Source: Staphylococcus phage vB_StaM_PB50
Reading direction: 5' to 3' (one strand)
DNA: 64,000 bases
Sequence record: OR770614.1
Below are positions 3,396-30,193 of the stretch, one piece after another. Positions within the stretch are counted from its first letter, which is position 1, and every line of letters starts with the position of its first letter. Under the pieces are notes generated by a model that worked only from the letters and a program-made list of their open reading frames with translations, did not search any database and had not been told where the DNA came from. Position numbers and translations under genes: made by a program.

Positions 3396-4295
3396 ATGGC
3401 AATTACAAGAAGAAAAGTAACTAATGAAACTAAGGATTTAAGTGTATTAGAATCAGCAGAATTAAAAGTAAGTGAAGAACAAGGTTATAAAGGTGACGTA
3501 TTAACTTTTGAAATTGAAACAATTCCAGAAAAATATGATAGAAAGAATTTAGTATTAATTCCAGAAGATGATAATGTAATCAAAATTAATTACAATAAGA
3601 ATGAAATTAATATTGCTTCTGATGAATTAAAAGATGTAATTATTAAATTAAAGGATATTCCAACAGATACAGAATATGATAATGTAACTATTACAGCTTC
3701 AGGAATTAATCCTGATAAAGAAAAAGAAATTAAAGAAGAAAAAGTAGAAGAAGTTAAGAATCCAGTTAAAAAGAAATCTAGTACAAAAACTAAAACAAGT
3801 AAAAAGGATGATAATAAAGTGGAAAAAATTAAAGTTAATCGAGTTAAAAAAGACGTTAAGAAAACTACTAAAAAGAAATACAGTGATAAATCATACACTA
3901 AAGATGAATTATTAAATGATTTATTAATGAATCTTGTAGATGAATCAGGAAATGAAGCATACAGTAAAAAAGAATTAAAAGATATTGTAACATTAGCAGA
4001 TTCATTACGTACATCAGCTTTAAAAGAGGGTAAAACAATTTCAATTAATAACATCAACTTTACACGTAAATTACAAAAAGCTCGTATTCATGCACCTAAA
4101 TTAGATACAGTTAAATCACCTTCATATGTAACTCCACATATAGTTATGCAAGCTAAAGTTGAATCTGATGATAAAGAAGTATTAAAAGGTGAGAAATTAT
4201 CTGCTGATAAATTTAGAACAAAAGATGGTGAAGAAATCGATTTAAATAAAGTTAATGAAGAGTATGAAAAAGAGTTTAAAAATAAATTTCAATAA
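3396..4295 (+). CDS. hypothetical lysine-rich protein
   Basis: 299-aa ORF preceded by the RBS 'aaggagag'. Central region is extremely K-rich ('KKSSTKTKTSKKDDNKVEKIKVNRVKKDVKKTTKKK'). Follows a 360-bp AT-rich divergent intergenic region. Confidence 0.55.
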   Translation: MAITRRKVTNETKDLSVLESAELKVSEEQGYKGDVLTFEIETIPEKYDRKNLVLIPEDDNVIKINYNKNEINIASDELKDVIIKLKDIPTDTEYDNVTITASGINPDKEKEIKEEKVEEVKNPVKKKSSTKTKTSKKDDNKVEKIKVNRVKKDVKKTTKKKYSDKSYTKDELLNDLLMNLVDESGNEAYSKKELKDIVTLADSLRTSALKEGKTISINNINFTRKLQKARIHAPKLDTVKSPSYVTPHIVMQAKVESDDKEVLKGEKLSADKFRTKDGEEIDLNKVNEEYEKEFKNKFQ

Positions 4296-4307
4296 TAAAT
4301 AGATTGG

Positions 4308-4970
4308 ATGATATTAATGAAGCATTTTTACAATAAGAAAAGAAGTATTAATATTAATATAGAGAATCTATATTTAAATCATATTGATGTAATTAAACGT
4401 TATGATTTTGGTGACGAAGAATTACATCAAATGATTGATAGATTTTTACCTCAAATAATTGAAGAATCTTATGAGTTTAATATTGAAATGTATAATTTAT
4501 TAAAGACTGATAATATTAAGGAACGCTATGAATTAACTTCATTAGCTTCTCTTGAATTATTAGATATAATTCTTTATTTTGTTTCTATAAATTCTACTTT
4601 GATTGAGAAGTATAATTTAGAATACAAATATGTAATAGAATTGAATGATTTAAATTTCAGTAAAGATTTTGTATTAAATACAGGTGAAAAAGTTAGTGAT
4701 GATAAATTCTATCAAACAATAATTGATTCTGTAAGTAAAACAGTGGTTAATAATGGTGGTCATATAAGAAGATTAACACCTAATAGAAAATATCATCAAG
4801 AAAATAAAAAAGTCAGTAAAAAAGAAATGAATCATATTATTGGTTCTATTTTCTTTATTAACCATAAAACAATAGATTTCTTATTAACTATGCTATTTGA
4901 AAAATTATCTTTAGAAAAAGATGTAGATTTAGTATTAGATAAAATTCAAGAAGTAGTTAAAAATAAATAA
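4308..4970 (+). CDS. hypothetical protein
   Basis: 220-aa ORF, 12 nt after the previous gene. Followed by a hairpin plus T-run. Confidence 0.5.
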   Translation: MILMKHFYNKKRSININIENLYLNHIDVIKRYDFGDEELHQMIDRFLPQIIEESYEFNIEMYNLLKTDNIKERYELTSLASLELLDIILYFVSINSTLIEKYNLEYKYVIELNDLNFSKDFVLNTGEKVSDDKFYQTIIDSVSKTVVNNGGHIRRLTPNRKYHQENKKVSKKEMNHIIGSIFFINHKTIDFLLTMLFEKLSLEKDVDLVLDKIQEVVKNK

Positions 4971-4976
4971 TTATTT

Positions 4977-5040
4977 TCCCTAACACTTATATTCCTTAAA
5001 TGGAGTATTTGTGTTAGGGAAATTTTTGTTTTTTTTTGTA
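4977..5040 (+). terminator. rho-independent terminator (stem 'TCCCTAACAC...GTGTTAGGGA' plus T-run)
   Basis: Inverted repeat 'tccctaacac'/'gtgttaggga' followed by 'tttttgttttttttt'. Confidence 0.6.
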
Positions 5041-5098
5041 AATTATTATCAAATCATATAACTTGATGGAACATATTTGTATTAAGAAAATATGAGCG

Positions 5099-8000
5099 GT
5101 GGTGAAATTAAAAGTAATGGATAATAATAAAAAGAATATAAAGAGGCTAGAAAAAAATAATAAATCAGAGATAATTAAAAATGCTTCTAAAAATACTAGT
5201 CGTATTCTTTTCAATGCATTTATTAAATCAAATCCAGCATTAGATAGTGTTATTGGTTCTGATGGATTAAATTTAATGAATAAAGAAGAAAGAAGAATTA
5301 AAAACGTTTCTGAAATTAAATCTTCCACTAAGAATTTAATAAAAAGTATTAAATCTAGTTCAGAAGAAAATGATATATTTTCAGAAGAAAGTGAAGAAAT
5401 ATCAAATTCTAAACCTGAGTATGAAACAGTTACTGAAATAATTGATAATGATGATGGTACAAAATCTGAAATAATAAATGTTTCAGATAAAAAGAAATCT
5501 AGTCTAGTAAATTCCCCTTTAATTGCTTTTAATAATCTCGCTACGATTAACCAAAAAGGTTTTACAGGAACTAATATAGCTTTAAGAAATTTAGCGATAT
5601 CAAATGAGGCTACAAGTACTTTAATGAATTCAGCTGTATCGAATTTAGCATCAATACAGAGTTCTATATATCAAAATACTTTACTTGAAGAAAATACTAA
5701 AAGAGGAAAACAGAGTAAACTATTTGAAATAATTAATGGTAATATAAGTTTATTAAAATATTTAGACGATAAGACAAATATTGAAAATAATTCAATGATA
5801 AGTATGTTAGGTGGTTCTGAAGGACTTAAGAATATATTAATGGGATTTGCAAAAAATCCTATTGAATTAGCATTAACTACAGGTGCTCAAATGGGCATGA
5901 AGAAATTGATGTATGGAAGTACTTCAGGATACGATCCAGATGATGTTGAAAATAAAGGTATATTTAGTAGACTTAATAGAAAATTTGATCCTAATAATTT
6001 AGGTTCTTTATTAGTAAGTGAACTGACTGATGATGAAGGAAGGTTATCAAATACCTTAGATAAACTTAAAGGTAATGATAATAAATATATTTCTAATTTA
6101 GGTGAAGCACTTAATAAAAGAATCGGAAATTTAAAAGATAACGTTTTAAGTGATGGAACAATATCAACTAAGAATAAAAGAGATAAAAATACTCCAGTTC
6201 AATTTGATAGACAAAGTCATACTTCTATTAATAAAGCTATACCAGATCTTTTATCTAGATTACAAGGTAATCTAATTGCTAGAAGAGAAGGAAAATCTAA
6301 TGGTTTAGTCAATAATAGTGAATTAGGTAGTATATATAATTATTCTGAAGGAACTTGGGATAGTAGAGAGAATACTAGAAAAAATATAAATGATAAATTA
6401 AAAGAAAAATCATTATTTAATTTTAAAGATACTAAATTAGGAAAAGATTTATCTGATAATGGTATTGAAGATGAAGAAATTAAGGATATCTTACTCTCTT
6501 TAAGTAAAATTAATAAACCAGTAAAAAATAAAGATGAATTATCTAAGCATACTAAAGATATAAATTATTCAGATATTATTGAAAATATTTTCAATAATGA
6601 TATATCTAAATTTAATATTGATCTTTTTAATATTAAGAAATCAATAGGCTCTGAGTATAACAAGATTGGTAAAGATGATTCAACATTAATGTCATTTACA
6701 GATATTAAAGGATTAAAAAGAAGAAATAATGAAACTCAATCAAGTTCTGCTAGAGTAAATAAAATTAATGAAGTTAAAGATTATTCTGATATCGAATGGA
6801 AGAATGATGATCTTGATGAACTTAAAAAATTATTCTTAGAAATAGAAAGTAAATTAGACGATATTAATCCAGAAAATATAAGCAATAATAAAGATTATGT
6901 AAATGATAAAATAGGAAAAATTAATAGTATTATAGATTCGTCTAGTAAGTTTAATTTACCTAGTTATTTATCTAATGAAAAAACAAAATCAGTTCAAGAC
7001 AAATTAGGTAAACTATCAAGTTCTGTTAATAAATTTAATGATATGCGTAAAGATCCTTCATCTATTTTAAGAGAAAACACTAATAATAATGGTAATAATG
7101 AAGATCATAATTCTGGTATCATAGATAATAACTATACAGATAATCATCCTTTAATGAATTTAATAAAGAATATTAAAGGACCTCAGAGTAATAATAAAGT
7201 TGATTTAAATAAAGAACCAACTAAAAGTATTGATGATTTATCTAGAGAAGAAAAGCAATCTAAAGCTAGAAAATATCTTGAAAATTTAATTAGCACTGCT
7301 TATCCTAAGCAAAGTAAAACTATGATAAACGACATGAATCAATCTGATGATAATAAAAAATTAGATGAAATGAAAAAAGGTTTATCAACTGCAAATGCTG
7401 CTGAGACTGGTGAAGACGTTATATCAAAATTATCAGGATCTAGTAAAACAAAGGTTGCTGAAGATTTAAGAGGAACTCTTAAATTTGGCTCTGGTGGAGC
7501 AGCTGAAAAAGAAACAGGTACTAAGAAATTAATGAACTCAATGTTAGATTTTAGTAAACCAGGAACAATTGCTTTTGCAGGACTATCTGCTACTGTTTTG
7601 GCTAAATTAATGAACGGTAAAAAGAAAAAAGATCAAGAAAAAGGTCTAATGGGTAGTGTTGGAACAGGATTGGGATTCTTAGGTAAAGCTGGATTAATGT
7701 TAGGTGGAGGTGCTATAGCAGCAAAATTCTTACCTAAGATACTAAAGAAATTCTTACCTAAAGGTGCAATGAAAATGCTTGATGTAGTTAGAGGACTACC
7801 TGGTAAAGTTAAAGGTGCTATTGGTAAAGTTGTAGATATAGGAAAAAACTTTTATGGGAAAACTAAAAATTTAATAAAAGGTATTGGAAATTTAGGTAAA
7901 AATATATTTGGAAAAACTGTTAAATTTGGTAAAGGTGCATTCAATAAAACTGTTAAATTTGGTAAAGGTGTATTCAATACAGGTGCATCTGTAGTAAAAT

Positions 8001-11000
8001 GGGGTGCTAAAAAGTTACCTAAAGTAAAATCATTTGCAGTTAAGGGATTAACTAAAACTGGTAAATTTTTAGGTAAAGGTTTTAAAAAAGCTAGTTCTAT
8101 AGGTAAAGGTATATTTAGCTCTATAAAAAATGGGGGTAAAAAAACTTTTGGATTCTTAGGTAAAGCTAAAAATAAACTATTTAGCAAAGGTGGTATGAAA
8201 GCTGCTGGAAAATTTGCTTTAAAAGCTGGTCTAAAAACAGCATTACCTTTTATACCTATTGTTGGTCCTATTATAGGTGCGGCAATGTGGGCACCAGATA
8301 TTATCAAAACTATAAAACATCCTATTGAATCTCTTAAACATCCAATTAAAACTTTAGGAAGCTTTTTCGGATTGTCTAAACACCCAGGAGATAATCTTGA
8401 GGCTAGAGAAAAAGAAGAAAAAGAAAATGAAGATGAAACAGGTTTAGGAAGATTAATATTATCTACTTCTAAAATGATGTTTAGATCATCTCCTTTATTC
8501 CCAATTTCAAAAGTTGGTGGAGATATGTTTAAAACAATAACTGATAATAAAATGAAGTCAGGTCCTAAAGCTGAAGAAGAAATACAAGAAAATATGTTCT
8601 ATGATACTCCTTTAGGTAGTTTATATCAAATTGCAAAAGGTGGAATAGATTTCTCTACTAAAGGTGGAGGAGAAATTGGTGATTGGTTTGCACGTTTCTT
8701 AGTTAAAATGGAAGAAATGGTAGTTGCCATGTCTAAAATGAAAAACTCTAGTTCAGGTGGAGATTCATCATCTTCATCAGGTAGCAGTAGTGGACAATTA
8801 CAAGGTGATGAAATTGAAATAGATAAAAATGCACCTTCTATTACATCACAATCTGTATTGAATAAAATACCTGATAATGCTGCAGGTGCTTGGATTAAGA
8901 AACACCAATTCTGGCAACCATTTGGTAATTATCAAGGACTATCATTTAACGGAAGTTCAAAACACTGGGGTATAGATATTGGTATGCCTACAGGAACAGA
9001 TATATTAGCTATTGTACCTGGTACAGTAAGTAATATAATTAAAGACGTTGGTGGAGGTAATATCGTTGAGGTCAAAAACGGTAGTATCTACACTTGGTAT
9101 ATGCATAATAGTAAAATAACTGCTAAAAAAGGTGATAAAGTAGGAGTAGGTCAAAAAATTGCCGTCTCTGGTAATACAGGGGCTCAAACTACTGCACCAC
9201 ATATGCACTTCCAGGTCATGAAAGGAAGACCTTCAAATGAAACTGCAATTGATCCAGCACCTTATGTATTTGCTAAAGTAAAAGGTAAAGGTTCAGATGA
9301 TGATGACGATAAGAGTAGTTCTAAAGGTGGAAGTAGTAAAAAAGGTGAAAAAGATAAAGGTGGAGGTCATTCACTAGTAGGTGATATGAATTCTGTATCT
9401 ATGCAAAGACAACTTAAGAAGAAAAGCATCCAAGATATGCAGAACCGAAGAAAAGAAATTGCTCAACAAAAGAGAGAGCAAGATAAAATTAATACACAAA
9501 TAAATAGAATCAATAAGCAAGATGATTATAAAGTTAAAGAAAAAGCTAAAAAAGTAAATAAAGTATTTAATGCAATTAAAGAAAGTAAAGAGAAAAAACA
9601 AACTGGAATATTAAGATCATCAAATCAATTTAATAAAATTTTGATTATAGGTGATGAAATAACTAAAGATGCTTCAAATGATCTTAGAATTAAAATTAAA
9701 GGTGCTAAAATAGAAGCTTCTGTAGGGAAACAATATTCTGGTGGATCTGAATCTGGTAGAAGAATATTACAGAATAATATTGATGAGTATAACAGAACAG
9801 GTGTAGCAATAGTCATCCAATTAGGTTTAAACGGAGGATTATCTACAGGAGAAATATCAGAAATACAGAATATGTATGATAAAGCTAATGTATATTTCGT
9901 TAATACTTATTTCAATAGTAATAAAAACGGTACTAGTTTAGATTTAACTGATTTGATGAATGCAGTCAATGAATCAATTAATGCTAGTGCAGCTAATATA
10001 ATTGACTGGTTTAGTAAAGCTAATTCTGTTTTAGTTAAAGAAGATGGTTATATGCCAACTAATAAAGGTAGAATGATATTAGTAGATTTAATAAAAATGT
10101 ATGTAAATCCTTATATTGGTGGTGGAGGTTCTTCTGATGATAAAAAAGCAGAAGAAAAAATTGATAAAGAAGTAGAAAAAGAAAAATCTAAAGCTGATAA
10201 AAAAGATAATAAAGATGAAGATGAAAAAGGATCTGAATCTAAAGTTTCTAAAGATGAAGATGGAGAATCTTCTGATAGTGATAGTTCTGATTCTTCTTCA
10301 GGTTCCGGAGCCGGAGAATACAGTTTCAAAAATGGTACTTGGTATGGTTCTATTACCGGTAGAGATGATAGAAGAATGGATGAAGAAGAACAAGAAGAGC
10401 TTAATGATCGTTTAATGAAACGTTATGCTAAAATCTATGGAATTGACTATGAAGAAGCTAAGAAAATAGATAAAGAACAACAAGAAGAGCTTAAAGCTAA
10501 AGCAGGTAAAGAAGCTACTGAGTCTGGATCTTCAAGTGGATCAAGTTCATCTAAAGATGGAGACGATAAAGATTCTGGATCTTCTGCAAGTTCTTCTAAG
10601 GATAAAGCTAAAGAAAATATTGAAAAAGCAGGTAGTCAAATTTCTAAATTAGGTAATGGTTTCCAATTACCAACATTAGAGAATAGTGGTTTTTCTAATA
10701 GTAATAAATCAACACAAAATAATCAAGGTAATACAAGTAATAATACAACAAATAATAATTATAATCAAGGTCAAGGAAGTACTGTTAATAATACCGATGT
10801 AAAACAAGAATTTGTAAAAGGTAAAAATAAAACTACAAATCATTATAATAAAATTGTAAATAATTATAAAAATTCAACTGTAACTAATGGTAATACAGAT
10901 TATATATATGATTATGAGCAATATTGGTATTCAGATGACCTCGTTAAAATGTTGTCAAATATAGATAGAAATACATTAGCTTCTACTAAAGAATTAGATA

Positions 11001-11023
11001 GACTTTTAGAAGAATTAAAATAA
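5099..11023 (+). CDS. giant virion protein (tape-measure-like or ejection protein) with glycine-rich hydrophobic segment, M23 peptidase domain and SGNH/GDSL-like hydrolase region
   Basis: 1974-aa ORF; the ATG at 5117 with upstream 'ggtggtga' is a possible alternative start. M23 signature '[22 protein letters not shown]...[41 protein letters not shown]'. '[15 protein letters not shown]...GLNGGL' resembles an SGNH hydrolase. Gly-rich hydrophobic stretch '[27 protein letters not shown]'. Shares blocks with the next gene. Confidence 0.65.
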   Translation: [1974 protein letters not shown]

Positions 11024-11044
11024 AAAGAGTGGTGAGAATAAAAA

Positions 11045-14000
11045 TTGGCTAAAGATAAATTTAATAATAAGAAATTAGAAAGAGAGTTCAATAGGAACTC
11101 CTCTTCTAATTCTTCTAGAAAATACATTGATAATGAATTCAAAAAGAATTTGAATAACATGAAATCAAACAATATGAAAAAACTTATTGATAACAATAAT
11201 CCTTTAAAAGCTATCAAAGAAGTTAAAGATAATAGAAAAGAACAATTTAAGAAGTTAACTGAAACTGGGAAAGATTTATCTAAAGAAGCTCTTAAAAGTA
11301 CTAAAAGAACTTTAAAAACTGGTGAAACGATCATAGATAAAGGAGCTTTAAATAAATCATCCAATTTAGATGGCGGAACAATGGATATGGGCGATGATTT
11401 TGATTTCAGTAGCTTTGATGATTTTGATATGAGTGATGAAAATTCAGATAATGATGAAATAGGAGATTTTTCTTTCGATGATTTTGATGAAGAAGAAAGT
11501 AATAAATCTGAAGTCATTTCATCAACAACAGTAATTAATGATAATTCATCTTCAGCTAAATCTTCTGCTCTTTTAACTTCTTCTATATCTAATTTATCTC
11601 AAATTAATGCCACAGGTTTTAATAATTTAATGGAAACTCTTCATTACATGAGAGAAACTAATGATAATGTTAGAGAGAATTTATTTGAAGGATTAACAGG
11701 TTTAATCAAAACTAGTAATGATATTAGAAATAATACATCTGTAAAAAATATAAGTGAAATTAAAAATAGTAATTCTTTAGAAGATTTGTTCTTATCTAAT
11801 ATAACTCTTTCTAATATACTAAGTGGTAGTAAAGAAGATAGTTTTAAAGATAAAGCTAAAGACTTTGCTAAAAAACAAGGTATTGAATTAGTTAAAGATA
11901 TTATTGAGAGTAGGACCAAAGGCATACAAGGTGGACTTTTAGACAGTGCTAAAGGTAAAGCTTTTGATATAATAAACAGTGATAAAATTAGTGAAAAGCT
12001 AACAAATATGTCAACGGTATTTACTAAAGATGAAAATAAAGAAGATAAGAAGAAAACTAATCGTGATTTCATAGATAAACAGAAAAGCAAACTTATAGAT
12101 AAATTATTTAATAATATCGATGGTGGAATTTCAACAGCAAATAAAAAGAATAAAAATGAAAGAGTAGCTTTTGATGTTGAAACACATAGTACTATTAATA
12201 CAGTTATTCCTGGTTATTTATCTAAAATAGTTGGTTTAACTTCTGAAGATGGTCAAGAAATTCATTATGACTATGATTCAGGATCTTTTAAAACATCTAA
12301 AACTATTAATGATGAAATTAAAAAATCTATAGATAAAACTATTGAAAATTCTGAATTCTTCAAAAGAGTTGAAAGTAAAGCTAAAGATAAAAATATAGAC
12401 TCTAAAGATTATAAATCATTAGTAAAAAATATTATTAGTGAAAATGTTAATAGTTCTAAAGATAGTGATAAAGTTAAAACTAAGTCATCTAATGTAAATA
12501 GTCTTTTAGAAGAGCTATTTGAAGATAAAGAAGTAAAAACTAGTTTAACTAAAGCTAGAATGCAATTGAATCAAAAATCTAAATCAATTAGAAAAAATCT
12601 TGGTGGAAGTACTATAAATGCAGTTAATGATAAAGGTCAAAAACCTAAGTCATATGCTTCTAAAGGTAACAATGAATTTTCTGACATTAATTTTAATATT
12701 ATCAATAGCGATATAAGTGAAATTAAAAATATTGTATCTAGAATAAATGATAAACTAGATGTAAGAAAAAATAATCAACAATCTTCACAAAATAATAATA
12801 TTGTATCTGGAGATAGTCAAAAACAAGATAGTAAATTTAATGAAATTAAAGAAAAATTGGATGACATTAAAGATACTAAGTCTTCTAATTCTTCTAATAA
12901 TGGAAATAATTTAAATAATAGAGATGAACAAAAATCTACTTTGATTCCAGATAATAATGAAGCTCATGCTTCTGAAGTAAATAAACAACAAGAAGAAAAA
13001 GAAGATAATCCATTAAAAGATGAAATTAAAGATAAAATAGAAGAAAAAGCTAAAGATAAAATTAAAGATATTGATAAAGATAAACTTAAAAGAAAAGTAT
13101 TAGATAGTAAAATAGCTAATACTAAAATTGGTAAAAAAGCTATAGGTGCTGGTGGATCAGTTGCCGGTAAAGTTGCTGCTAGTGGAGCTTTGTTTTCTGG
13201 TGCTGGAAGAGAATTACGTTCTAAACTAAGAAATAAAGCTAAAGGTAAATTTGGTGCAAGTAAAGCTGGAAGTAAATTAATGAGATCTAAAGCCGGTAAA
13301 GGTATAGTTAAAGCTGGTTTGAAAGTAGGTTCAAGAGTAGGATTGGCTGCAACTGGTGTAGGGTTACCTTTATCTATATTATTGTCTGCTCCTGAAATAA
13401 TGAGTACTATAGCACATCCGATTGAATCTCTTAAACATCCAATTAAAACTTTAGGAAGTTTTATAGGTTTTAATGATCACCCTGCAAAACAGAAAAAAGA
13501 ACAAGAAAAATTAGATTCCGAACAACCTAATGGCGAAAATGCTAAATTTGGTGTTGATCCTTTAGTTGATTCTAAATTAACTGGTGATAAAGATAGTTCT
13601 TCATTAATTGGAGGTTTTATCAAAGATAATCCTCTATTAGCTCAAGTTCCGTTAATGGGATTAGCTGGAGTTGGGCTTTATAAAGGAATTGTAAAACCTG
13701 CTTTTGGTCTAGGTATGAATATGGTACAGAAAACTACTGGAATGGCTAAAGGATTTGGTGATTCTGCTGATAGCATGATGGAAGAAAAATCTAACGGTTT
13801 TGGTGGTTTAATTAAAAAAGCTGTAGGTGGAGCTTCAATGTTATTAATGGCACCTTTAGCTATGGCTGGAAAAGGAATTAGTACTATGGTTGGAGCTACT
13901 TCTAATCTTATTCAAGTTGGATTAAGTTTAACTAAAAATTTAACAGGATTCATTTATGACAAATTCCTTTCTCATGAAGAAGAAATGTCTGAGCAAAGTC

Positions 14001-16759
14001 GTGAAATGGTGGAAGCTAGTAAAGAAGAATTAGGTTCTTATCAAGAAGGTATTGAAGATCATGCATCTGAAAGAGCTAAGAAAGAAATGGCTGAAATGCA
14101 AGGAATGTCTGATAAAGCTAGTAAGGATGCTAAAAAACAAGTAGAAGATTCAACTAATAAAACTAAAGATAATATCGAGAAAGATGTTAATGGAGTAATG
14201 AAAAATTCTCCTTTATCTATCATGGGTAAAATTAGTGAAAAAATGCATAAAATGATGCCTAATAATTTAATGAGTAAACTTAAAAAAGCTCCTAAAAAAT
14301 TGGCTGAAACTATGTTAAGATTGTCTCCTTTCTATTCTTTATTAAGTAAGAAGAAAAAGAAAAAATCTAAAAAAGATATAACTGATCCTGATGGTGAAGT
14401 AGTAAACAAAATTGGTGATTGGTTTGATAAACTTGGCGGAATGATGAATGATATTATGGCAGGATTCATGGCCGGTTCATCAGGAAGTTCTTCTTCAGAA
14501 GGATCATCTGAAGGAGGAGCAGAAAGTGTTGACGGTAAAGATGTTGCATCTAAAGTATGGAATTTCTTTGCTGAAAAAGGGTTAGAAGATCATCAGATAG
14601 CAGGTATATTAGGTAACTTTGAACGTGAATCTAAAATGGATCCTGGTGCTGAACAAAACTCTGGTTGGGTCGGAGGTAAAGGACTAGCTCAATGGGATGA
14701 CCGTAAAGATAAACTTAAAGCATTTGCTGAAAAGAAAGGTAAGAAATGGTCTGACCTTGATGCTCAATTAGACTTCATGTGGTATGAACTTCAAGGATCT
14801 GAATCTGCTGCTTGGTCTGCTATTAAGAAAGCTAAGAATGTTGATGAAGCAACAGTTGTATGGGAGAATTTGTATGAACGTGCAGGAGTTAAAGTTATTC
14901 CTGAAAGACAATCAAACGCTAAAAAATGGTTAGATAAACTAGGGGGTTCATCTAAGAAATCCACTAAAGCTAAAGGTGGAGGATCTAGCACTGTTTATAG
15001 TGATACGAACGTTAATCAATTTGCAAATATGGTATCATCTACATCTAATAAAAATAAAAAAGTTGGAAAAACTGGTTTAGTTTTAGAAAAACCTACTATT
15101 ACTGGTGGAGTTTATGGTAAAGGTGGAGGATCCGGTGGATCTGAAAAAGATAAAATTAAACAAGCAGTACAATGGGCAATAGCTCAAGATGGTGCAAAAT
15201 ACTCTCAGTCAAATAGACAAGGTAAAAATTCATTTGACTGTTCTAGTTTAATTGCTCGTTCATTCAAAAAAGCTGGTTTAGAAATGGATATCAACGCTAC
15301 CACTTTTACTTTTAGAGATGGTGGTACTAAATTTAGAAAAATAAGTAAAGGTACTAAGAAAAAAATTGGTGATATTACTTTATGTGATAACGATAACCAT
15401 GTTACTATGTATATAGGTGGAGGAAAACAAGTTGAATCATATTATGGTCATGGTGTTGCTGTAACTCCTGCAAATAAATACCAAAAAATGGGATTACAAA
15501 TTGGTATTACAATGAGATATGGCGGCGGTGGTCCTGATGATACAGGTAAACCTCTAGATGGTAGTGATAAAATAGATGGAAGCGATAATGAAGGAGGAGA
15601 CTCTAACGGTTCTTCTGCTGGAGCTTCTGAATATAGTTTCAAAAATGGTACTTGGTACGGTTCTATTACTGGTAGAGATGATAACCGTATGGATGAAGAA
15701 GAACAAGAAGCTTTAAATGATAGATTAATGAAACGTTATGCTAGAATTTATGGAATTGACTATGAAGAAGCTAAGAAAATAGATGAAGAACAACAGGCTG
15801 AACTTAAAGCTAAAGCAGGTAAGGAAGCTACTGAATCTGGAGCTTCAAGTGGATCAAGTTCATCATCTGACGGTTCAGAAGGATCATCTGGTAAAGATGG
15901 TTCTGATGGAAAAGATGGTAAAGACGGTTCATCATCTTCATATAGTTCTGGAGCTGATGGTGACAATCAATCATCTTCAGGAAGTCAAGGAAATGTTAAT
16001 AATAACCAAAATAATTCTAGTATAATTAATAATGGAGGAAACAATAGCTCTACAGTTATTAATAATAATTATAATAATGGTAGACCTACAACTAATAATA
16101 ATTCCATTACAAATCAAACTATACAAGGCAACAATAATACAGTAAGAAATATCTATAATATTACTAATAATTATAATAATTCTAAAGTAAATTATGAAAA
16201 TAAAGGACCTATGAAAGTAGATCCACAAAAACGTATGGATTTAGATAATATAATTAAACATACAAGTAATATTGATAAAAATACTGCCAAAATGTTAGAA
16301 CAACTTAAAGATATGTCCTTTAAAGGTAAAAATATTAATAAAGATGGAAATACAACAAATATTTCTAATACTATTATTAATAATAAAGGCGATTTAGTAG
16401 ATTCTAAAGGTAATGTAATTATTAAAGATATTCAAAAAGAGCTTGAAAAAATTATTAAAGAAAATCCTAATATTATTAATAATGGTCAAAATGGTTCTAA
16501 TGGATCTAATGGTTCTAATGGAAATAGTAACAATAATAATGGAAATGATAATCAATCAAATCATAATAATCCTAATGATCCAAACAATTCTAATAATCCA
16601 AATAATCCTAATGATCCAAATAATCCTTATACTCCTGATGGTTCAAGTCAAGATCCATCTACAGGTAATCAGGATTTACAAGAAGCAATTAGAGATTCTT
16701 ATGGAGATAGATTTGTTATTGATGTTAGACCAGCTATACCTGTTTTCTCAGGAAAATAA
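11045..16759 (+). CDS. giant virion protein paralogous to the upstream gene, with tail-lysozyme-like (lytic transglycosylase-like) and NlpC/P60 peptidase domains
   Basis: 1904-aa ORF with probable TTG start after the RBS 'agagtggtgag'. '[55 protein letters not shown]...LDFMWYEL' matches phage tail lysozyme-like domains. '[20 protein letters not shown]...[20 protein letters not shown]' matches NlpC/P60 (Cys...His). Gly-rich hydrophobic segment '[22 protein letters not shown]'. Confidence 0.65.
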   Translation: [1904 protein letters not shown]

Positions 16760-16799: not shown

Positions 16800-16848
16800 T
16801 GGGGATATGACATTTATTATGTGTCATATCCTCTTTATTATTTAAAAG
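16800..16848 (+). terminator. rho-independent terminator
   Basis: Hairpin 'ggatatgacatttattatgtgtcatatcc' followed by 'tctttattattt', just after the stop of the 1904-aa gene. Confidence 0.55.
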
Positions 16849-16861
16849 GAAGTGAAATAAA

Positions 16862-18337
16862 TTGGCTGAAGAAAAAGATAAAAAAGAGTCTAAAGAACAA
16901 GAACCTTTAAAAGTTGCTGACAATGATATGGCTTTAATACCTCAAGCTGATGAGAAAAAAGGTGATTATGACTATCATGAATATGATCCTACTCAAAAAG
17001 ATACTGGTGCTTTTATGGATGCTTTAGGTAATCAAAGACAAGCAACTGAATATTTAACAGATAAAAATGCTAAAGATAAAAAACAATTAAGAAATGTTAA
17101 AGGTGAACTAGATGTATTTGGAATGCCTATGTACTATTCTAGTTTAGATGATCCTAATAGAAGAATATATAAAAGAACATTTGAATTAGATTTACCTTTA
17201 GTATTTATAATGCCAGGTATGCCTAAATTAAATGGTAAATTATTTGGTAAACCAGGAGAAGGTAAATTATGGAGTTTTGGTGAAGGAATGGATAGATTAG
17301 TAAACTCTGGTTTATCTTTAGTTGGTATCGGTAATACTAAAGATGGTCGTATGATAAGCTTTGAACCTAAAATGGCCGAATATTATAAATATGTACAGAC
17401 TATGGCTTCTCAAGTTCATGCATCAATGGGATTAAAAGGGTCATTTGATCTAGGTGGATCTTTACAAGATGATAAAAACTATGGACTAGCTTACTATGCA
17501 GATAAATCAACTAGTATATCAGAATCTGCAATGCATGAATATAATCAATCTGATATTGCTTCTCAAGTTAATAATAAAAACCAAGAAATACGAGAACAAA
17601 AAGAAATGGCTCGTATTGGAGGAGCTTCTATCTTAGGTAAAATTACTAGAACTATTAAAGATAGTATTAATGATATGGTAGCAAATATGCCAGTTATTGG
17701 TGGTATTGTAGGTAACTTTATGGAACATCTAGATGGTGCATCAATGTATTATCCCGATGTTTGGATGAACTCTACATTCGATAGAACTTATAATTTAGAA
17801 TTTAAATTCTATAGTGCTTATGGAGATCCACAATCTATATTTGACAATGTATATTTACCATTTCTTTCATTATTAGTATTAGCTTTACCTTTACAAGATT
17901 CAATATTCTCTTATAAGCAACCGTTTATTATCAGAGCTAATTGTCCTGGTAGATTTGAATGTAATACAGGTATAATAACTTCAATGAATATAGTTCGTGG
18001 AGAAGAGGGTACATGGACTGCAGATGGTTTCCCAAGAGAAATTACTGTATCTATTAATATTAGAGATATGTATCCAAACTTAATGGCTTCTAAATCATTC
18101 CAAAGAATGAAATTTAATACAGGATTATTATCTTATATTGATTGCTTAGCCGGAATTAGAAGGGATCAACTATCTATTATTGATAAAGCTCAAATTAATA
18201 TGAAAACTCAATACTCTAGAAGTATGCAAGTGATTAAAGGAAGAGTATTTCAACAACAAATTGATGATGCAATCTATGGATATAAATCCCAATATAATCC
18301 TCATCCAGGTAATCCGGGATTGAATATGTTTACTTAA
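16862..18337 (+). CDS. hypothetical virion structural protein (position consistent with a distal tail or baseplate component)
   Basis: 491-aa ORF with TTG start after 'aaaggaag'. Lies directly downstream of the tape-measure-like genes. No diagnostic motif. Confidence 0.45.
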   Translation: MAEEKDKKESKEQEPLKVADNDMALIPQADEKKGDYDYHEYDPTQKDTGAFMDALGNQRQATEYLTDKNAKDKKQLRNVKGELDVFGMPMYYSSLDDPNRRIYKRTFELDLPLVFIMPGMPKLNGKLFGKPGEGKLWSFGEGMDRLVNSGLSLVGIGNTKDGRMISFEPKMAEYYKYVQTMASQVHASMGLKGSFDLGGSLQDDKNYGLAYYADKSTSISESAMHEYNQSDIASQVNNKNQEIREQKEMARIGGASILGKITRTIKDSINDMVANMPVIGGIVGNFMEHLDGASMYYPDVWMNSTFDRTYNLEFKFYSAYGDPQSIFDNVYLPFLSLLVLALPLQDSIFSYKQPFIIRANCPGRFECNTGIITSMNIVRGEEGTWTADGFPREITVSINIRDMYPNLMASKSFQRMKFNTGLLSYIDCLAGIRRDQLSIIDKAQINMKTQYSRSMQVIKGRVFQQQIDDAIYGYKSQYNPHPGNPGLNMFT

Positions 18338-21571: not shown

Positions 21572-24500
21572 TTATTTTTCAACATTGATATCAATGAAGA
21601 TACGTTCAATAACATTGTTGAATTTAACAGAAATACGTACACGTACGATACGTTGAGCTTTATCATATTCATCAGCACTAACTTCAGCTTGAATAGTTTC
21701 ACAACTACGGTTAGATACATAACGAGTTAAATAAGAATTCAATTCTGTATTCATGATAGAACGAGTTTCATCATCATTTAATTCAAATTGGTAATCAGAA
21801 ACTAATGTTTCAGCATCACGTTTAATTTGATTTAATGTGAAGATATTATTAAGGTTAGATAATGGACCATCTGATTTAATAGATGTCATTTGAGAACCAA
21901 ATTTAGTTCTATCAATATCTTTTTCAATGTAGTTAATCTTAGAAGTATAAAGTTTTTCTTTATAAGGTTCATTAGGAGCCCATGATAAAGCTTTATGTCC
22001 TTCTACTAGTCCACGTCTAGGTCCTGCAATAGGGAAGTGTAAACCAGAATTAACTGCTTGATAAGGAATCATTGAAGCTAAACGATAAGTTGGTGTGAAA
22101 CGAATGTCTCTACCAGTATACTCATCATAGTAAGTTAAGTCTTGAGAGTAAATAGCTGTGTACTCAGAAGATACTGCAAATTCTTCTTTTCTCCATTTAA
22201 TTGCATCTTCAGGACTAACTGGGTAACGATCAGTAATAGTATCAGCTAAGAATACAAAGTCCTTACGGTTGTTTTTAGCTAATTCGGAAATAGCGAACTT
22301 AACTTCGTTAGAATAACGAGCATCAAGAACAACATCAAACGGAACAGCTTTTGTATTTGTTAAATCTTCATCAATTAAACCTTTATAAGCTTTAATTAAT
22401 TCACGATTAACTGCATTCTTACGTTCACTATATGATAAATCATTTTCATAAGAGAAATCACCATCTGAACCGAATAAGAATTTAACCGGACTAGCTACAT
22501 CAATAAGGTTAGTATTGAAGTATTTAGAGTTAGCTTTATTCAAGTTAGCAACAGCCAATTCAATATTTTGATGAGCATTTGAAGTGATATCACGTTCAGT
22601 ATAGTTAGAACGAGTTTGGATCATTTCATCAATGTTCTTACGGAAAATAGCAATATCATAATAGATAGTGTTAGCTGCAATACGTACAGCACGAGCAACT
22701 TTATAAGTTGAAGATACTGAAACAGCTCTATTAATTAAGTCAACTAATTGATTAGCAATTTCATTACATATAGTATAAACTTCTTCACGATTAGTTGCGT
22801 TATCTTCCATTAAACCTACACGAACATCATCAATCAATAATTGACAATCTGCAATACGGTTTAACATAGATTCAGGAGAAACTATTTCACGTTCACCGTC
22901 TCCATCTTCATCAGGAACAGTGTTAATGAATTTAATAGCATCTTCTGGTAATCCTTCTTTAACAGCAGGAATTAAATTATCAGTAACATATTTAAGTTCA
23001 GTTTCAGTATCGTTTAATACTTTACTCATACCTTCAATATTAGTTACAGATTTCATTCCAATACGTAATTCAGCAATATCATTTGTAATATCTAAGATAT
23101 TAGATTTATGTTGAATACCAAAGATACGGATTTGGTCTTTTTGAGAAAGAACATCACGTAATTCTTTAACATCTGCTTGATATTTAGGATTTGAAGAAAT
23201 ACCTGAATTAGATTTATAAACTAATTCATAAGCTGCATTAAGTTTATTACCATTATCTAAGAATTCATTTAATAGTAAAGAACCAATTTCTTCAGAAGAA
23301 GCTAATACAGCTGATAAGTTTTCTTCATTAGAATCTTCGAAATAAGTTTTATAGTTTTCAACCAATTCAGAAACAACGCCTGAAGGTTTACCACCAAAGT
23401 TAATTTCAGAAGGTTTGAATTTTTCAGCTAATTCTTTTTCTACTGCTTCTTCATCTTCAATATTAGATGTAACATCTTCTTGAGTTAATTTATCAGAAAC
23501 TAAATTCTCTTTAATTGTCTTAGGAAGATCCCCTGCATCATCAACAAATAATCCACCATTAGGTACGATAATTTTGTTTAAGATTGACTTGAATTCAGAG
23601 AATTTATCAGAACGTAGAGTCTTATATTGATCTCTCATGTAAGATAAACGGTCAGAATCTGTTACAAATGATTTCTCACGAATACCATTATCTAATGAAA
23701 TTAAAGCATTTTCAACTGGATCGTTAAAATCAGGTTTATTTAATACTGGTTGTCCATTAATAGTTACTGGAATACCTTTATTATTGTAGCGTTGTAAAGA
23801 AATATGAACATCTTCTGAATCTTTAGTAACTTCAGAATAGAATGTTTCAGGAGCTCCGTCTAAACCTACTTTAGAACGTCCAGAAATAACATCAATACTA
23901 GCTGGATGAACATATGGATTAATTTGTTCAGCTAATCTTTGGAAATTTTCAAGATTAAATTTAATATTGATATATTTAGAATAACGATTAACTACTTCTT
24001 CGATAAACATTGATTCACCAGTATCAGAAATTGAATCTGTATCAAATGTTACTAAGAAAGGTCCATCTATTACATTAACGTTACCAAATTCATCGAAATC
24101 TAATACTTCTAGATTATAAACACGTTCTGTACGACCACTAGTGTCATAAGAAGTATTTAATGTTAAACGAATTCCTAAATCGTTATAAGATTCACCACGA
24201 CCATTTGGATAAGCTAATAATAAGAAATTATTATTATATCCATCTACAGTTTGTTCTGCAGTACGATCTAATGAAATTTCATTTACTAATTCTTCAATAT
24301 TTCTATTATTTTTCTTAACAAATGCAATAGTTGGACGAATTTTAACGTCATCAATTTCTACTAATTCATTTGCTTCTGTTAAAACTTTTTTGCCTTTACG
24401 TTGAACTCTACTTTGAACATTTAAAATGGCATGAGAGTAAGTTGCGTTATTAGGTAGTACACGTAATACGTAAGCTTGACCACCAGAACGTAACCAGTTT

Positions 24501-24721
24501 ACCATGTTGTAAGCAGTTTGTCCGTATTTTGCGTAATTTGGTTCACCATATTTAAAGATAAATTCTTCTTCAGTACCAACAAAGTCAATAACTCCATCTT
24601 TACCTTTTTCAAATGTGTCAGCTGCAAATAAAGTCACTGGACCTTCAGCTGTTTGGAAGTTATTTTGATAAGAGTTAACTTGAGTTTGTACAGAAGGATG
24701 GAGATACATAAAGTCTGCCAT
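21572..24721 (-). CDS. tail sheath protein (unusually large, 1049 aa)
   Basis: N-terminal 'GPVTLFAADTFEKGKDGVIDFVGTEEEFIFKYGEPNYAKYGQTAYNMVNWLRSGGQAYVLRV' parallels the T4 gp18 N-terminal pattern ('GTAALAGKFQWGP...FG.P....YFMSAMNFLQYGNDLRVVRA'). Followed by the tube-sized ORF. Confidence 0.6.
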   Translation of the reverse strand: MADFMYLHPSVQTQVNSYQNNFQTAEGPVTLFAADTFEKGKDGVIDFVGTEEEFIFKYGEPNYAKYGQTAYNMVNWLRSGGQAYVLRVLPNNATYSHAILNVQSRVQRKGKKVLTEANELVEIDDVKIRPTIAFVKKNNRNIEELVNEISLDRTAEQTVDGYNNNFLLLAYPNGRGESYNDLGIRLTLNTSYDTSGRTERVYNLEVLDFDEFGNVNVIDGPFLVTFDTDSISDTGESMFIEEVVNRYSKYINIKFNLENFQRLAEQINPYVHPASIDVISGRSKVGLDGAPETFYSEVTKDSEDVHISLQRYNNKGIPVTINGQPVLNKPDFNDPVENALISLDNGIREKSFVTDSDRLSYMRDQYKTLRSDKFSEFKSILNKIIVPNGGLFVDDAGDLPKTIKENLVSDKLTQEDVTSNIEDEEAVEKELAEKFKPSEINFGGKPSGVVSELVENYKTYFEDSNEENLSAVLASSEEIGSLLLNEFLDNGNKLNAAYELVYKSNSGISSNPKYQADVKELRDVLSQKDQIRIFGIQHKSNILDITNDIAELRIGMKSVTNIEGMSKVLNDTETELKYVTDNLIPAVKEGLPEDAIKFINTVPDEDGDGEREIVSPESMLNRIADCQLLIDDVRVGLMEDNATNREEVYTICNEIANQLVDLINRAVSVSSTYKVARAVRIAANTIYYDIAIFRKNIDEMIQTRSNYTERDITSNAHQNIELAVANLNKANSKYFNTNLIDVASPVKFLFGSDGDFSYENDLSYSERKNAVNRELIKAYKGLIDEDLTNTKAVPFDVVLDARYSNEVKFAISELAKNNRKDFVFLADTITDRYPVSPEDAIKWRKEEFAVSSEYTAIYSQDLTYYDEYTGRDIRFTPTYRLASMIPYQAVNSGLHFPIAGPRRGLVEGHKALSWAPNEPYKEKLYTSKINYIEKDIDRTKFGSQMTSIKSDGPLSNLNNIFTLNQIKRDAETLVSDYQFELNDDETRSIMNTELNSYLTRYVSNRSCETIQAEVSADEYDKAQRIVRVRISVKFNNVIERIFIDINVEK

Positions 24722-27277: not shown

Positions 27278-28732
27278 TTAAATTGAACAAGATTCACATT
27301 CAACAATACCTTGAGAGTTTTCATCATGGTCTGGTGAATAAATACGAGTATAATACATAGATTTAATACCTTTACTATAAGCATAGTTACGTAATCTACT
27401 AATATCTCGTGTAGTTGTTTCTTTATCTAAAGAATCTTTTTTCCATTCATAAAGATCTGGATCAAGTTCATTCATTAAATAAATATTCATTGAAATACCT
27501 TGGTCTACATGATATTGAGCTTCTGAATATAAATCAATCATATCTCTCATATCTAATTGATAAGCATTTTTCTTAAAGTATTCAAAGTTTTCAGGATTAA
27601 TACCTGGTGCTGGATAGAAAGTAGTACCTGTTTTACCTTCAACACGTTCTTCAATTAATTCTACAATAGGATGAATAGAAGGTGACACTTCTCTAACATA
27701 ACCAATAGAACCATTAGGTGCTACAGCTAATCTATTTTGATTGTATAAACCATCCATTACAATATTATTCTTCAATTGTTCCCAATCAGAATCAGATGGA
27801 ATAAAGATATCTTCAAATAATTCTTTAACTTTTTCCGTACGTGGTTGAATATTTTTACCAATATAACGTTTATCAAAGTAAGAACCATCAGCATATTCAG
27901 TTTTTTCAAATAAATAGAATGATTCATCTTTTTCTTTAGCAATTTTATTTGATTCAAATAATGTCCAATAGTTTAATAACATGAAATAAATATTAGTGAA
28001 ATCTTTAGATTCTTCTGATCCATATTGAATATGATTTTCAGCTAAATAAGTGTGTAATCCCATTGCACCTAAACCAACTGTATGGAATAAATCATTAGCT
28101 TTTTTAACTGTAGGTACAGCTTCAATATTAGATTTTTCTGCTACTGAATTTAAACTTCTTAACATAGTCCCAACTGATTTACCAAAGTCTTCTGATTTCA
28201 TTAAACCAGGTACAATAGTTGAAGCTAAGTTACATGAAACATCTGTTCCTGTTTTAACGTATTGTTGATTATCGTCAACTAATGAAGGGTATTGTACTTG
28301 TAAAATTTCACTACATAAGTTACTCATTTTAATTGTACCATGACTAATTGGATTAGCTCTATTAGCAGTATCAATATTAATGATATAAGGATAACCAGAC
28401 TCTTGTTGTAATTTACTAATAGTAGTTTCTAAATCACGAGCATACATTTTTTCTTTACCAATACGTTTATCATCTACAAAGATATCATAGTAAGTATTAA
28501 AGTCAATACTATCGAAATCTAAATCATAATATTTTTTAATATCATATGGACTAAATGTATATAATGATTTATTTTCTTTAACTAGTTGATAATATTTATC
28601 TGGAACTGTTAAACCTAATGAAATAGTTTTTAATCTTACTTTTTCATCAGCATTTTCTTTCTTAGTATCTAAGAATTTTATTATATCTTTATGGAAAATG
28701 TTTAAGTAAAGTGCACCTGCACCATTTCTCTG
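27278..28732 (-). CDS. nrdE: ribonucleotide reductase class Ib alpha subunit, exon 2
   Basis: Begins 'QRNGAGALYLNIF', which continues the R1 motif 'NQLG|(A)RQGAGA'. Ends '...ECESCSI' (C-terminal redox cysteines). An in-frame stop lies immediately upstream of the listed Met, so translation must continue from exon 1. Confidence 0.85.
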   Translation of the reverse strand, partial: QRNGAGALYLNIFHKDIIKFLDTKKENADEKVRLKTISLGLTVPDKYYQLVKENKSLYTFSPYDIKKYYDLDFDSIDFNTYYDIFVDDKRIGKEKMYARDLETTISKLQQESGYPYIINIDTANRANPISHGTIKMSNLCSEILQVQYPSLVDDNQQYVKTGTDVSCNLASTIVPGLMKSEDFGKSVGTMLRSLNSVAEKSNIEAVPTVKKANDLFHTVGLGAMGLHTYLAENHIQYGSEESKDFTNIYFMLLNYWTLFESNKIAKEKDESFYLFEKTEYADGSYFDKRYIGKNIQPRTEKVKELFEDIFIPSDSDWEQLKNNIVMDGLYNQNRLAVAPNGSIGYVREVSPSIHPIVELIEERVEGKTGTTFYPAPGINPENFEYFKKNAYQLDMRDMIDLYSEAQYHVDQGISMNIYLMNELDPDLYEWKKDSLDKETTTRDISRLRNYAYSKGIKSMYYTRIYSPDHDENSQGIVECESCSI

Positions 28733-29446: not shown

Positions 29447-30193
29447 ACCCAATTGATTTACATATGATAAAGTATCTTCAAATACTTTCATAACTGGAAC
29501 TACTCCTGAAGCAGCACCTTCAACGCCTTTAATTGGATCATTGTCAGCACGTAAATTACTTAAAGATACTCCAATTCCTCCACCACGTTTACTTAATTGA
29601 GCAACGTTAGAAATATTTCTATAGATAGATGATAAAGAATCTTCCATAGTTAATAAGAAACAACTTACCAATTCTCCAGAACGTACTCTACCTGCATTAA
29701 GGAATGTAGGTGTAGCAGGTTGAAAAGTGCCTGTAATAATTTCATTAGCAATATTTCTAGCTAATTCTTCATCCCCATCAGCTAAATATAGAGCAACAAA
29801 TAAAATTCTATCTTCATATAATTCTAATAAAATTTCTCCTGCATCATCTTTCATTGCATACTGTTCATAGAATTTTTTAGCACCTAATAAACGAGTGAAT
29901 CTATGTTTATAAGCCATTAATTCTTTCATTAATCCTTTAATAAATTCAAAATCATAATTTTTGATCATATCTACATCAATATAATCATTATCGACTAAAT
30001 AGTTAATTTTTTCTTTATATGTTTTAAAGTATCTTACATTTTTATTTACATTATCTAAAAAGTATTTTTTAACTGAAGCTAATTCAAATTCTAAATCTAA
30101 ATTGCCATCTTTTAATTGTGAACCTCTTGAATTCAATTCATTGTATGAATAATCTTTAAACTTTTCTGAAGTTAAATCTATTTCTTTTGGCAT
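29447..30193 (-). CDS. nrdE: ribonucleotide reductase class Ib alpha subunit, exon 1
   Basis: N-terminal ATP-cone-less NrdE-type sequence ending '...TLSYVNQLG' (conserved NQLG before the GAGA loop). The stop codon directly after lies in the intron. Confidence 0.85.

Follow-up and report, generated by a model that had tools for sequence, protein, structure and literature searches.

A Tandem Pair of Giant Genes in a Staphylococcus Jumbo Phage

The DNA analyzed here is a stretch of 64,000 nucleotides (nt) from Staphylococcus phage vB_StaM_PB50 (sequence record OR770614.1; the whole stretch is referred to as the window). It contains two adjacent giant genes, designated A and B, which probably encode duplicated tape-measure proteins and whose features are collected in Table 1. 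The window has a G+C content of ~25%. The 11.7-kb region carrying the pair is 98.1% identical at the nucleotide level to Staphylococcus phage Machias and 95.7% identical to AH12. Genes gp092 (QQO92481) and gp091 (QQO92480) of Machias are the same two genes in the same order, with 98.1% DNA and 97-98% protein identity. Adjoining genes encode a phage tail tube, a 1049-amino acid (aa) tail sheath, a ribonucleotide reductase, and a Dda/RecD-like helicase. Sheath identity is 88-89% with S6, MarsHill, Madawaska, PALS2, DC4, and LY01, 87% with SA1, 48% with Listeria phage LPJP1, and 35-43% with Bacillus phages BpSp, AR9, and PBS1. Because of the DNA and sheath identities and the gene content, the window is assigned to a Staphylococcus jumbo myophage of the AR9/PBS1-like, phiKZ-related group.

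The expression signals around the two genes were read from the sequence. A Shine-Dalgarno-like element, GAGCGGTGGTGA, which resembles the ribosome-binding site of B (GAGTGGTGA), overlaps the GTG at position 5099 and lies 11 nt 5' of an ATG at position 5117. Because GTG 5099 sits inside GAGCGGTGGTGA, ATG 5117 is probably the true start of A, which would give a protein of 1968 aa. Genes A and B form one bicistronic unit between two terminators. A match to the late-promoter consensus of AR9, AACA-N6-TA (PMC5312081), occurs once in the 147-nt leader versus 47 times on the plus strand of the window. It is weak evidence for a promoter because the consensus is frequent in the window. A scan for sigma-70 promoters gave no enrichment in the window (66 matches versus 78 expected), a result that is irrelevant here because the phage uses its own RNA polymerases. 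Translation of A and B as one read-through fusion was considered and rejected. The two genes are in the same frame, but three in-frame stop codons (TAA, TGA, TAA) occur in the region of the 21-nt spacer, and a fusion is therefore implausible.

Table 1. Features of the A-B locus and its borders (positions refer to the window; RBS, ribosome-binding site)
Feature	Position	Strand	Remarks
Intrinsic terminator ending the upstream operon	about 4975..5038	+	Hairpin 4978-5019 plus T-run; read from the sequence; Machias terminator at the equivalent place
Match to AR9 late-promoter consensus AACA-N6-TA	5070..5081	+	36 nt 5' of ATG 5117; weak evidence
Gene A, probable tape-measure paralogue 1	5099..11023	+	1974 aa from GTG 5099; orthologue of Machias gp092 "tape measure protein"
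A, N-terminal motif V.FD...H..IN..IP..LS(K/R)...Y.Y..G	6194..6388	+	Common to B, AR9 gp203, and the LPJP1 protein
A, Gly/Lys-rich region, transmembrane-grade hydrophobic helix (aa 1045-1069), and block HPIESLKHPIKTLGSF	7496..8383	+	
A, M23 peptidase	8960..9256	+	HxxxD (H1289, D1293) and HxH (H1368, H1370) intact
A, SGNH domain like the C-terminal domain of OatA	9635..10102	+	A aa ~1513-1668; probably catalytically dead
A, C block EYSFKNGTWYGSITGRDD...AGKEATESG	10316..10522	+	93% aa and 89% nt identity to the B copy
A, C-terminal helix motif ..MLSNIDRNT..LLEELK	10910..11020	+	Common to B; resembles the end of AR9 gp203
A-B spacer, 21 nt	11024..11044	+	RBS GAGTGGTGA 9 nt before the TTG of B; no terminator
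Gene B, probable tape-measure paralogue 2	11045..16759	+	1904 aa, TTG start; orthologue of Machias gp091 "tail lysin"
B, N-terminal motif	12161..12301	+	Lacks the 12-aa insertion of A; nearer to AR9/LPJP1 than that of A
B, hydrophobic helix (aa 765-783) and block HPIESLKHPIKTLGSF	13337..13483	+	
B, Phage_lysozyme2 domain	14543..14941	+	Glu of GN..ES (E1195) present
B, NlpC/P60 endopeptidase	15224..15475	+	Cys1399 (FDCSS) and His1452 (NHVTMY) present
B, C block	15629..15841	+	AlphaFold2 single-sequence model: beta-hairpin and two helices, mean predicted local distance difference test score (pLDDT) 72
B, C-terminal helix motif ..HTSNIDKNTAKMLEQLKDM	16220..16315	+	Followed by a B-specific Asn/Pro-rich tail to 16756
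Intrinsic terminator ending the A-B operon	16801..16843	+	13-bp stem plus T-run; Machias terminator at the equivalent place
Downstream virion gene, 491 aa, phrog_20401	16862..18337	+	Homologue of AR9 gp204, BpSp gp264, phiR1-37 g085, and phiKZ gp182; marks the tape-measure position

A and B Are Similar over Their Full Length

An earlier note on this DNA, made from the sequence alone, had described A and B as tandem paralogues of ~1900 aa that share a middle and a C-terminal block. Both blocks were recovered by BLASTP of A against B. Identity is 42% across the 114 aa of the middle block (expect value, E, 1e-17) and 50% across the 266 aa of the C-terminal block (E 8e-43), in which a 69-aa core reaches 93%. 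On the DNA level, positions 10307-10551 and 15620-15864 are 89% identical over 245 nt, and positions 8286-8385 and 13383-13482 are 79% identical over 100 nt. The "near-identical DNA" formerly ascribed to the middle block thus describes a 44-nt core with one mismatch and not the block as a whole. Neither the middle nor the C block occurs in further copies within the window.

Similarity between the two proteins does extend past these blocks, whose isolation would have spoken against an extended relationship. With SEG filtering switched off, BLASTP produced a third collinear alignment, of the N-terminal parts, in seven of seven genomes (E 1e-7 to 3e-13, with ~25% of residues identical over 260-520 aa). 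The N-terminal third, set down in the earlier note as of low complexity, is consequently also homologous between A and B. Comparison of family profiles built from seven orthologues each aligned 1444 columns, from residues 113-1969 of A to residues 145-1757 of B, with a probability of 100% and E 2.7e-69. In both proteins, an IGDWF motif is followed by a Ser/Gly linker and then by the first enzyme domain, and both end in the terminal helix motif ..SNID.NT... The common order of elements is a helical N-terminal part with its motif, a hydrophobic region rich in Gly and Lys that contains a transmembrane-grade helix, the HPIESLKHPIKTLGSF block, IGDWF, the enzyme cassette, the EYSFKNG block (the C block), and the C-terminal helix. 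Because the N-terminal and profile similarities go beyond the two blocks, A and B are full-length collinear tandem paralogues that differ mainly in their enzyme cassette. Across the genomes, A has 1973-2020 aa and B has 1900-1960 aa.

When the C block was searched with HMMER against 1.84 billion representative proteins, only the A-type protein and one weak coiled-coil match were returned. The block has no outside relatives and is therefore family-specific, providing no functional lead.

Enzyme Cassettes of A and B

Each protein had been proposed to bear a different pair of peptidoglycan hydrolase domains, namely an M23 peptidase and an SGNH-like region in A and a tail-lysozyme-like domain and NlpC/P60 in B. 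Three of these four assignments score above the Pfam gathering cutoffs. Peptidase_M23 (PF01551) matched aa 1288-1386 of A with E 1.4e-22 and 80.1 bits (cutoff 28.7). The closest solved structures in the PDB are LytU, LytM, and lysostaphin (E 1e-27 to 1e-19), which are staphylococcal Gly-Gly endopeptidases, and the M23 domain of A is predicted to be of the same type. Tape measures of Staphylococcus siphophages (phi12, 3A, 47, phiSa2-type; phiIPLA35) contain embedded M23 domains that are 46-54% identical to it.

In B, Phage_lysozyme2 (PF18013) covers aa 1167-1299 with E 2.8e-40 and 138.2 bits (cutoff 28.2). Among solved structures, the domain comes closest to the N-terminal domain of phi29 gp13 (PDB 3CSQ, E 1.4e-6), in which the Glu of the SES motif aligns with E1195. 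A domain of the Twort tape measure, or tail-associated lysin, is 54% identical to the lysozyme domain of B. The Glu of the SES motif is catalytic in gp13. NlpC/P60 (PF00877) was found at aa 1394-1477 (E 2.4e-7, 31.1 bits, cutoff 23), and its solved relatives in the PDB are DL-endopeptidases of the CwlO and RipC type. The tail-knob morphogenesis protein gp13 of phi29 combines a glycosidase and an M23 domain in one protein of 365 aa; here these activities would be split over two paralogues of ~1900 aa. The fourth domain, the SGNH domain of A, does not fit the proposed pairing and is treated below.

Different lineages carry different cassettes. AR9 and BpSp have VgrG3-like_C, and LPJP1 has VgrG3-like_C plus NlpC/P60. 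An M15/VanY-like domain occurs in the metagenomic contig L014, M23 plus SGNH in Staphylococcus A, and Phage_lysozyme2 plus NlpC/P60 in Staphylococcus B. This distribution points to swapping of cassettes on a conserved scaffold. A tape measure with muralytic activity is an established concept, known from phages such as Staphylococcus siphophages, Twort-like myophages, and T5 (Pb2). Those phages have a single tape measure of ~1000-2000 aa with an embedded lysin, on a scaffold unrelated to that of A and B.

The SGNH Domain of A Is Related to OatA

A profile of four orthologues of the SGNH domain matched PDB entries 6WN9 (E 6.5e-15) and 6VJP (E 6.7e-14) over the whole domain; with the window sequence alone, E was 2e-9. 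Entry 6VJP is SaOatA-C, the C-terminal SGNH O-acetyltransferase domain of Staphylococcus aureus OatA, an enzyme that O-acetylates N-acetylmuramic acid and thereby confers lysozyme resistance (PMC9487903). The AT3 membrane domain of S. aureus OatA is absent from A, and the homology spans the whole SGNH domain. Other approaches were uninformative for this region. Pfam made no call for the window sequence and gave sub-threshold GDSL and DUF459 matches only for the MarsHill/S6 version. A homologue search with the region returned no protein at E <= 0.001, and the AlphaFold2 single-sequence model had a mean pLDDT of 36 and was unusable.

Inspection of the conserved blocks showed that the window domain has GDE in block I (E1520 in place of Ser) and D1649-G-Y-M1652 in block V (Met in place of His), with the Asn of block III (N1578) kept. 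The MarsHill/S6 clade retains GDS in block I, GxNG in block III, and the His of block V. In the window, Machias, AH12, LY01, and SA1, Ser is replaced by Glu or Asp and His by Met, Leu, or Thr. Five phages (MarsHill, Madawaska, PALS2, DC4, and S6; L002, L005 etc. in our collection) share a domain of 100% protein identity, and the other four phage copies are 36-41% identical to theirs. Among 50,697 phage records, an OatA-like SGNH domain was detected only in nine Staphylococcus jumbo phages, apart from four short Listeria contigs with a weak match (E 1e-3 to 2e-3).

Thus, the SGNH-like region of the earlier note is a real SGNH domain, but it is of the OatA O-acetyltransferase type with the catalytic Ser and His lost. 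Because these two residues are gone, the domain is not a demonstrable peptidoglycan hydrolase. It belongs to the OatA family by descent and is probably a degenerate, non-catalytic module.

Single-copy Relatives and a Conserved Position

Each of the nine Staphylococcus jumbo phages of the collection (Machias, AH12, MarsHill, Madawaska, S6, PALS2, DC4, LY01, and SA1) carries both A and B. On the 3' side, the pair is followed by the gp182/gp204-like virion gene, a 720-aa gene, and then the tail tube and sheath genes on the opposite strand. Relatives outside Staphylococcus have one gene at the corresponding place. AR9 gp203 (1925 aa, annotated as tail tape measure protein) lies directly 5' of gp204, which is a homologue of window gene 16862-18337, and BpSp gp263 (1797 aa) lies directly 5' of gp264. 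LPJP1 has one tape-measure-sized region, broken by ambiguous bases, 5' of the same virion gene. Three annotated hypothetical proteins and the ambiguous bases occupy this region (L010, 10789-15375), which is probably one gene split by assembly problems. Using tblastn, one match place each was found in PBS1, Goe21, Internexus, and phiR1-37. In phiR1-37, g083 and g085 are a few kilobases apart, and the same junction is probably present. The IMG/VR contigs L014 and L015 each contain one giant open reading frame (ORF) bearing the motif. A locus search with the motif alignment retrieved AR9 and three metagenomic contigs only; the same kind of search with a single protein, for which low-complexity peptides were picked, retrieved nothing.

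The giant proteins AR9 gp203, PBS1 gp95, and BpSp gp263 (tail tape measure or "lysis domain" proteins) resemble A and B in length (1797-1925 aa), position, N-terminal motif, Gly-rich hydrophobic region, IGNWF/IGDWF motif, and a Ser-rich C-terminal part with a terminal helix. They differ in being single copy, in having one VgrG3-like_C glycosidase, and in lacking the EYSFKNG block. The motif alignment of A, B, AR9 gp203, and the LPJP1 protein has nine invariant columns, and the motif lies at the same distance from the start. In BLASTP, AR9 gp203 matched B with E about 1e-6 to 3e-7 and A, at the same position, with E down to 9e-6. The outgroups are nearer to B, as judged by the better E values to AR9 gp203 and the LPJP1 protein, by the 12-aa insertion that is found only in A, and by the position of NlpC/P60, which B has in common with LPJP1. 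For these reasons, B looks more ancestral than A.

In phiKZ, gp182, the homologue of window gene 16862-18337, directly follows gp181. The latter was shown experimentally to be a 2237-aa virion peptidoglycan hydrolase (Briers et al. 2008, as summarised in PMC5380687). Like A and B, gp181 is a giant protein with an embedded muralytic domain (of the lytic transglycosylase/lysozyme type) at the same position; unlike them, it is single copy and comes from a phage of a Gram-negative host. No similarity of A or B to gp181 was detected by tblastn. Because the gp181-gp182 order of phiKZ matches, A and B occupy a position that is conserved across phiKZ-related jumbo phages. The duplication itself is specific to, and fixed in, the Staphylococcus jumbo-phage clade, since the relatives (AR9, PBS1, BpSp, LPJP1, and two metagenomic contigs) have a single gene, in every case immediately 5' of a virion gene like phiKZ gp182. 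The single-copy state of the relatives also bears out the view that the duplication is unusual.

In Machias (L001, 17793-20910), the orthologue of the downstream virion gene is annotated as two exons split by a TnpB/CasX-like "transposase" ORF; the window gene is uninterrupted and encodes 491 aa.

Divergence and Signs of Gene Conversion

A and B orthologues of different clades are about 50-61% identical, compared with about 88-89% for the sheath (21572-24721) and about 87% for the downstream virion gene. Both proteins thus evolve much faster than the neighboring structural genes. The C block behaves differently when A is compared with B. Protein identity between the paralogous blocks is 92-96% in MarsHill, S6, and SA1 (67-71 aa) and 93% in the window (69 aa), with a proportion of nonsynonymous differences (pN) of 0.04-0.07.

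Synonymous codons in the middle block follow the lineage and not the paralogue. In the window clade, both A and B use ATT, TCT, CTT, ACT, and GGA. In S6, MarsHill, and LY01, both copies use ATA, TCA (TCG in LY01 B), TTA, ACA, and GGT (GGC in LY01 A). SA1 has CCT in both copies versus CCA elsewhere. We analyzed quartets of two genomes with two paralogues each and counted the sites that group A with B of the same genome (concerted) against a control pattern. For the window and S6, the concerted and control sites numbered 7 versus 1 in the middle block and 8 versus 2 in the C block; for S6 and SA1, they numbered 4 versus 0 and 10 versus 1, respectively. All C block quartets of distinct clades gave 7-10 concerted versus 1-3 control sites. 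The proportion of synonymous differences (pS) between the A and B copies of the C block is 0.31 in this genome, and it is 0.48-0.62 between orthologues of different clades. Because the codons co-vary by lineage, the quartet counts favor the concerted pattern, and pS is low within the genome, repeated short-tract gene conversion between A and B together with strong purifying selection is supported but not proven.

Probable Function as Duplicated Tape Measures

We infer that A and B are probably tandem duplicates of the single giant gene for a tape measure and tail-lumen lysin of AR9/PBS1-like jumbo myophages, fixed in the Staphylococcus clade. As expected for a tape measure, the pair belongs to the tail module, with the conserved virion gene and the genes for tube and sheath close by, and the same junction is found in AR9, BpSp, LPJP1, and phiKZ. 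The homology to AR9 gp203, with its tape-measure annotation, and the presence of lytic domains such as tape measures of Staphylococcus phages typically contain are further points in favor. Korn et al. reported a significant helical content and several predicted transmembrane domains for both proteins. Our hydropathy scan revealed one transmembrane-grade helix in A and one in B, each beside the middle block, plus Gly-rich hydrophobic stretches. Tail lengths of 233-237 nm have been reported for MarsHill and S6. At 1.5 Å per residue, tails of this length call for about 1550-1580 residues in helical conformation. Of the 1900-2020 aa of A and B, roughly 300-450 belong to globular domains and linkers, and the fit depends on subtracting them. 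The 1964-aa tape measure protein of phiCbK follows the length rule.

Several points weigh against this assignment. A fully helical ruler of 1974 aa would lead to a tail of about 296 nm and not 235 nm. Neither A nor B is listed among the 15 proteins identified by liquid chromatography-mass spectrometry in DC4, although the tail sheath was missed too and the data set lacks the depth to decide the matter. For AR9 gp203, the role as a ruler is itself no more than an annotation. The conversion signal comes from tracts of only 90 and 186 nt in a small number of independent lineages. Two different proteins of ~210 kDa would have to fit into a tail lumen of three-fold symmetry. Finally, no canonical frameshifted pair of tail-assembly chaperone genes was seen directly upstream, where two ORFs lie in the same frame, 12 nt apart and without family matches, although no search for a frameshift was made. 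Such a frameshifted pair does not occur in all myophages.

If A and B are tape measures, both proteins would be made late and loaded into the lumen of the tail tube, probably via their shared N- and C-terminal docking motifs, and mixed trimers would be possible. Together they would set or fill the ~235-nm tail. Contraction of the sheath would then expel them through the tube, and the expelled enzymes may cut complementary bonds of the thick staphylococcal wall, i.e. pentaglycine bridges (M23), glycan strands (lysozyme), and stem peptides (NlpC/P60). The hydrophobic segments may insert into the membrane and thus form a conduit for the DNA.

A more specific model, which we put forward tentatively and regard as less likely than not, is that A and B co-assemble as one heteromeric tape measure per tail. 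Both copies would contact the same hub, chaperone, or terminator partners through the converted blocks (HPIESLKHPIKTLGSF and EYSFKNG...) and the terminal motifs, and a single tail would deliver four wall-targeting modules. The SGNH domain of the MarsHill/S6 clade may act in this model as a de-O-acetylase that unmasks the glycan for the partner lysozyme and counters OatA-based resistance, and the window module may have decayed to a non-catalytic, perhaps binding, domain.

The names deposited in GenBank suggest a different division of labor. In Machias and MarsHill, the pair is called "tape measure protein" and "tail lysin", which may be read to mean that only A measures length and that B has become, by subfunctionalization, a tail-associated lysin or ejection protein that is no longer a ruler. 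The extra Asn/Pro-rich tail of B beyond the shared terminal helix would go with such a role. However, it is B and not A that is nearer to the single ancestral protein, A also bears lytic domains, and the two proteins have similar lengths and the same terminal motifs in all genomes. We regard loss of the ruler function by B as conceivable but doubtful. It is also unlikely that each virion contains either A or B, which would yield two particle types suited to different wall chemotypes as a form of bet-hedging. The complementary enzyme sets and the shared docking motifs, which would let either protein fill the same site, are compatible with this idea. Co-transcription of A and B across a 21-nt spacer with no regulatory element between them speaks against it, and there was no sign of an alternative promoter, a switch, or an invertible element.

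Two further explanations place A and B outside the tail. They might be head-internal ejection proteins comparable with T7 gp16 or with internal virion proteins that have M23 or transglycosylase domains; the M23 search also matched solved phage chains named "Internal protein" and "Gp16", and jumbo phages eject many proteins. This appears improbable in view of the conserved place by the tube and sheath genes and upstream of the gp182-like gene (a baseplate or tail-tube gene in some annotations), the rough fit of protein size to tail length, and the similarity of the enzyme domains, which are most like those in tape measures of Staphylococcus siphophages and Twort-like myophages. Far less credible is the notion that A and B are not virion proteins at all but secreted or membrane hydrolases of a conjugative or mobile element, or additional endolysins. 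We take the pairing of lysozyme and NlpC/P60 in B to resemble the conjugation hydrolases of the CwlT type. Yet the window derives from a lytic jumbo phage with genes for sheath, tube, ribonucleotide reductase, and helicase, dedicated endolysins have been described elsewhere in these genomes, and both proteins have a non-enzymatic scaffold of ~1100 aa that is homologous to that of AR9 gp203. The CwlT-like reading was rejected on this genomic context. Duplicated tape measures that carry their own lysins are the explanation that we retain.

Other Genes in the Window

Two plus-strand ORFs, 3396-4295 (299 aa) and 4308-4970 (220 aa), lie directly 5' of A before the terminator and are kept in all Staphylococcus jumbo phages. 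Neither belongs to a Pfam or PHROG family, and a sub-threshold histone-fold match was obtained for the first ORF only. Their position (3396-4970) would suit tail-assembly chaperones, with nothing in support. A third giant ORF, 53504-61849 on the plus strand (2781 aa), matches PHROGs for tail protein, PblB-type receptor-binding, and host range; it is probably a tail fiber and is unrelated to A and B. The gene for the large subunit of ribonucleotide reductase (27278-30193, minus strand) is split. Its N-terminal part, 29444-30193, contains RNR_N and lgN and covers barrel positions 1-74, and its C-terminal part, 27278-28735, covers barrel positions 75-523. An ORF for an HNH endonuclease (28770-29318) lies between the two parts, and the arrangement looks like an intron with a homing endonuclease.

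Relation to Published Work and Significance

The gene pair has already been deposited and named. In Machias, MarsHill, and Madawaska, the products are called "tape measure protein" and "tail lysin", and in SA1 both are called "tail tape measure protein". Korn et al. wrote of "two potential tape measure proteins", and a tail lysozyme as well as an M23-containing tape measure are mentioned in the paper on DC4. Not found in those papers were the full-length paralogy, the single-copy outgroups, the relationship to OatA with catalytic decay, and the gene-conversion signal. These points are refinements of a known feature and not a new kind of system. A literature search on "two tape measure" yielded pairs of tape-measure chaperones only and no duplicated tape measures. 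Because the genes are annotated in near-identical published phages and the functional statements are inferred, the practical significance is limited. The locus is best seen as a real, tidy case of tape-measure duplication with cassette swapping. With regard to applications, the pair offers three or four modules directed at the staphylococcal wall in virion-associated form, one of them related to OatA and not otherwise seen in phage records.

Tape measures are normally single copy. For this reason, a fixed tandem duplicate is a natural experiment on how the tail lumen is filled and on how docking interfaces, represented by the converted blocks, are set apart from an exchangeable payload, represented by the cassettes.

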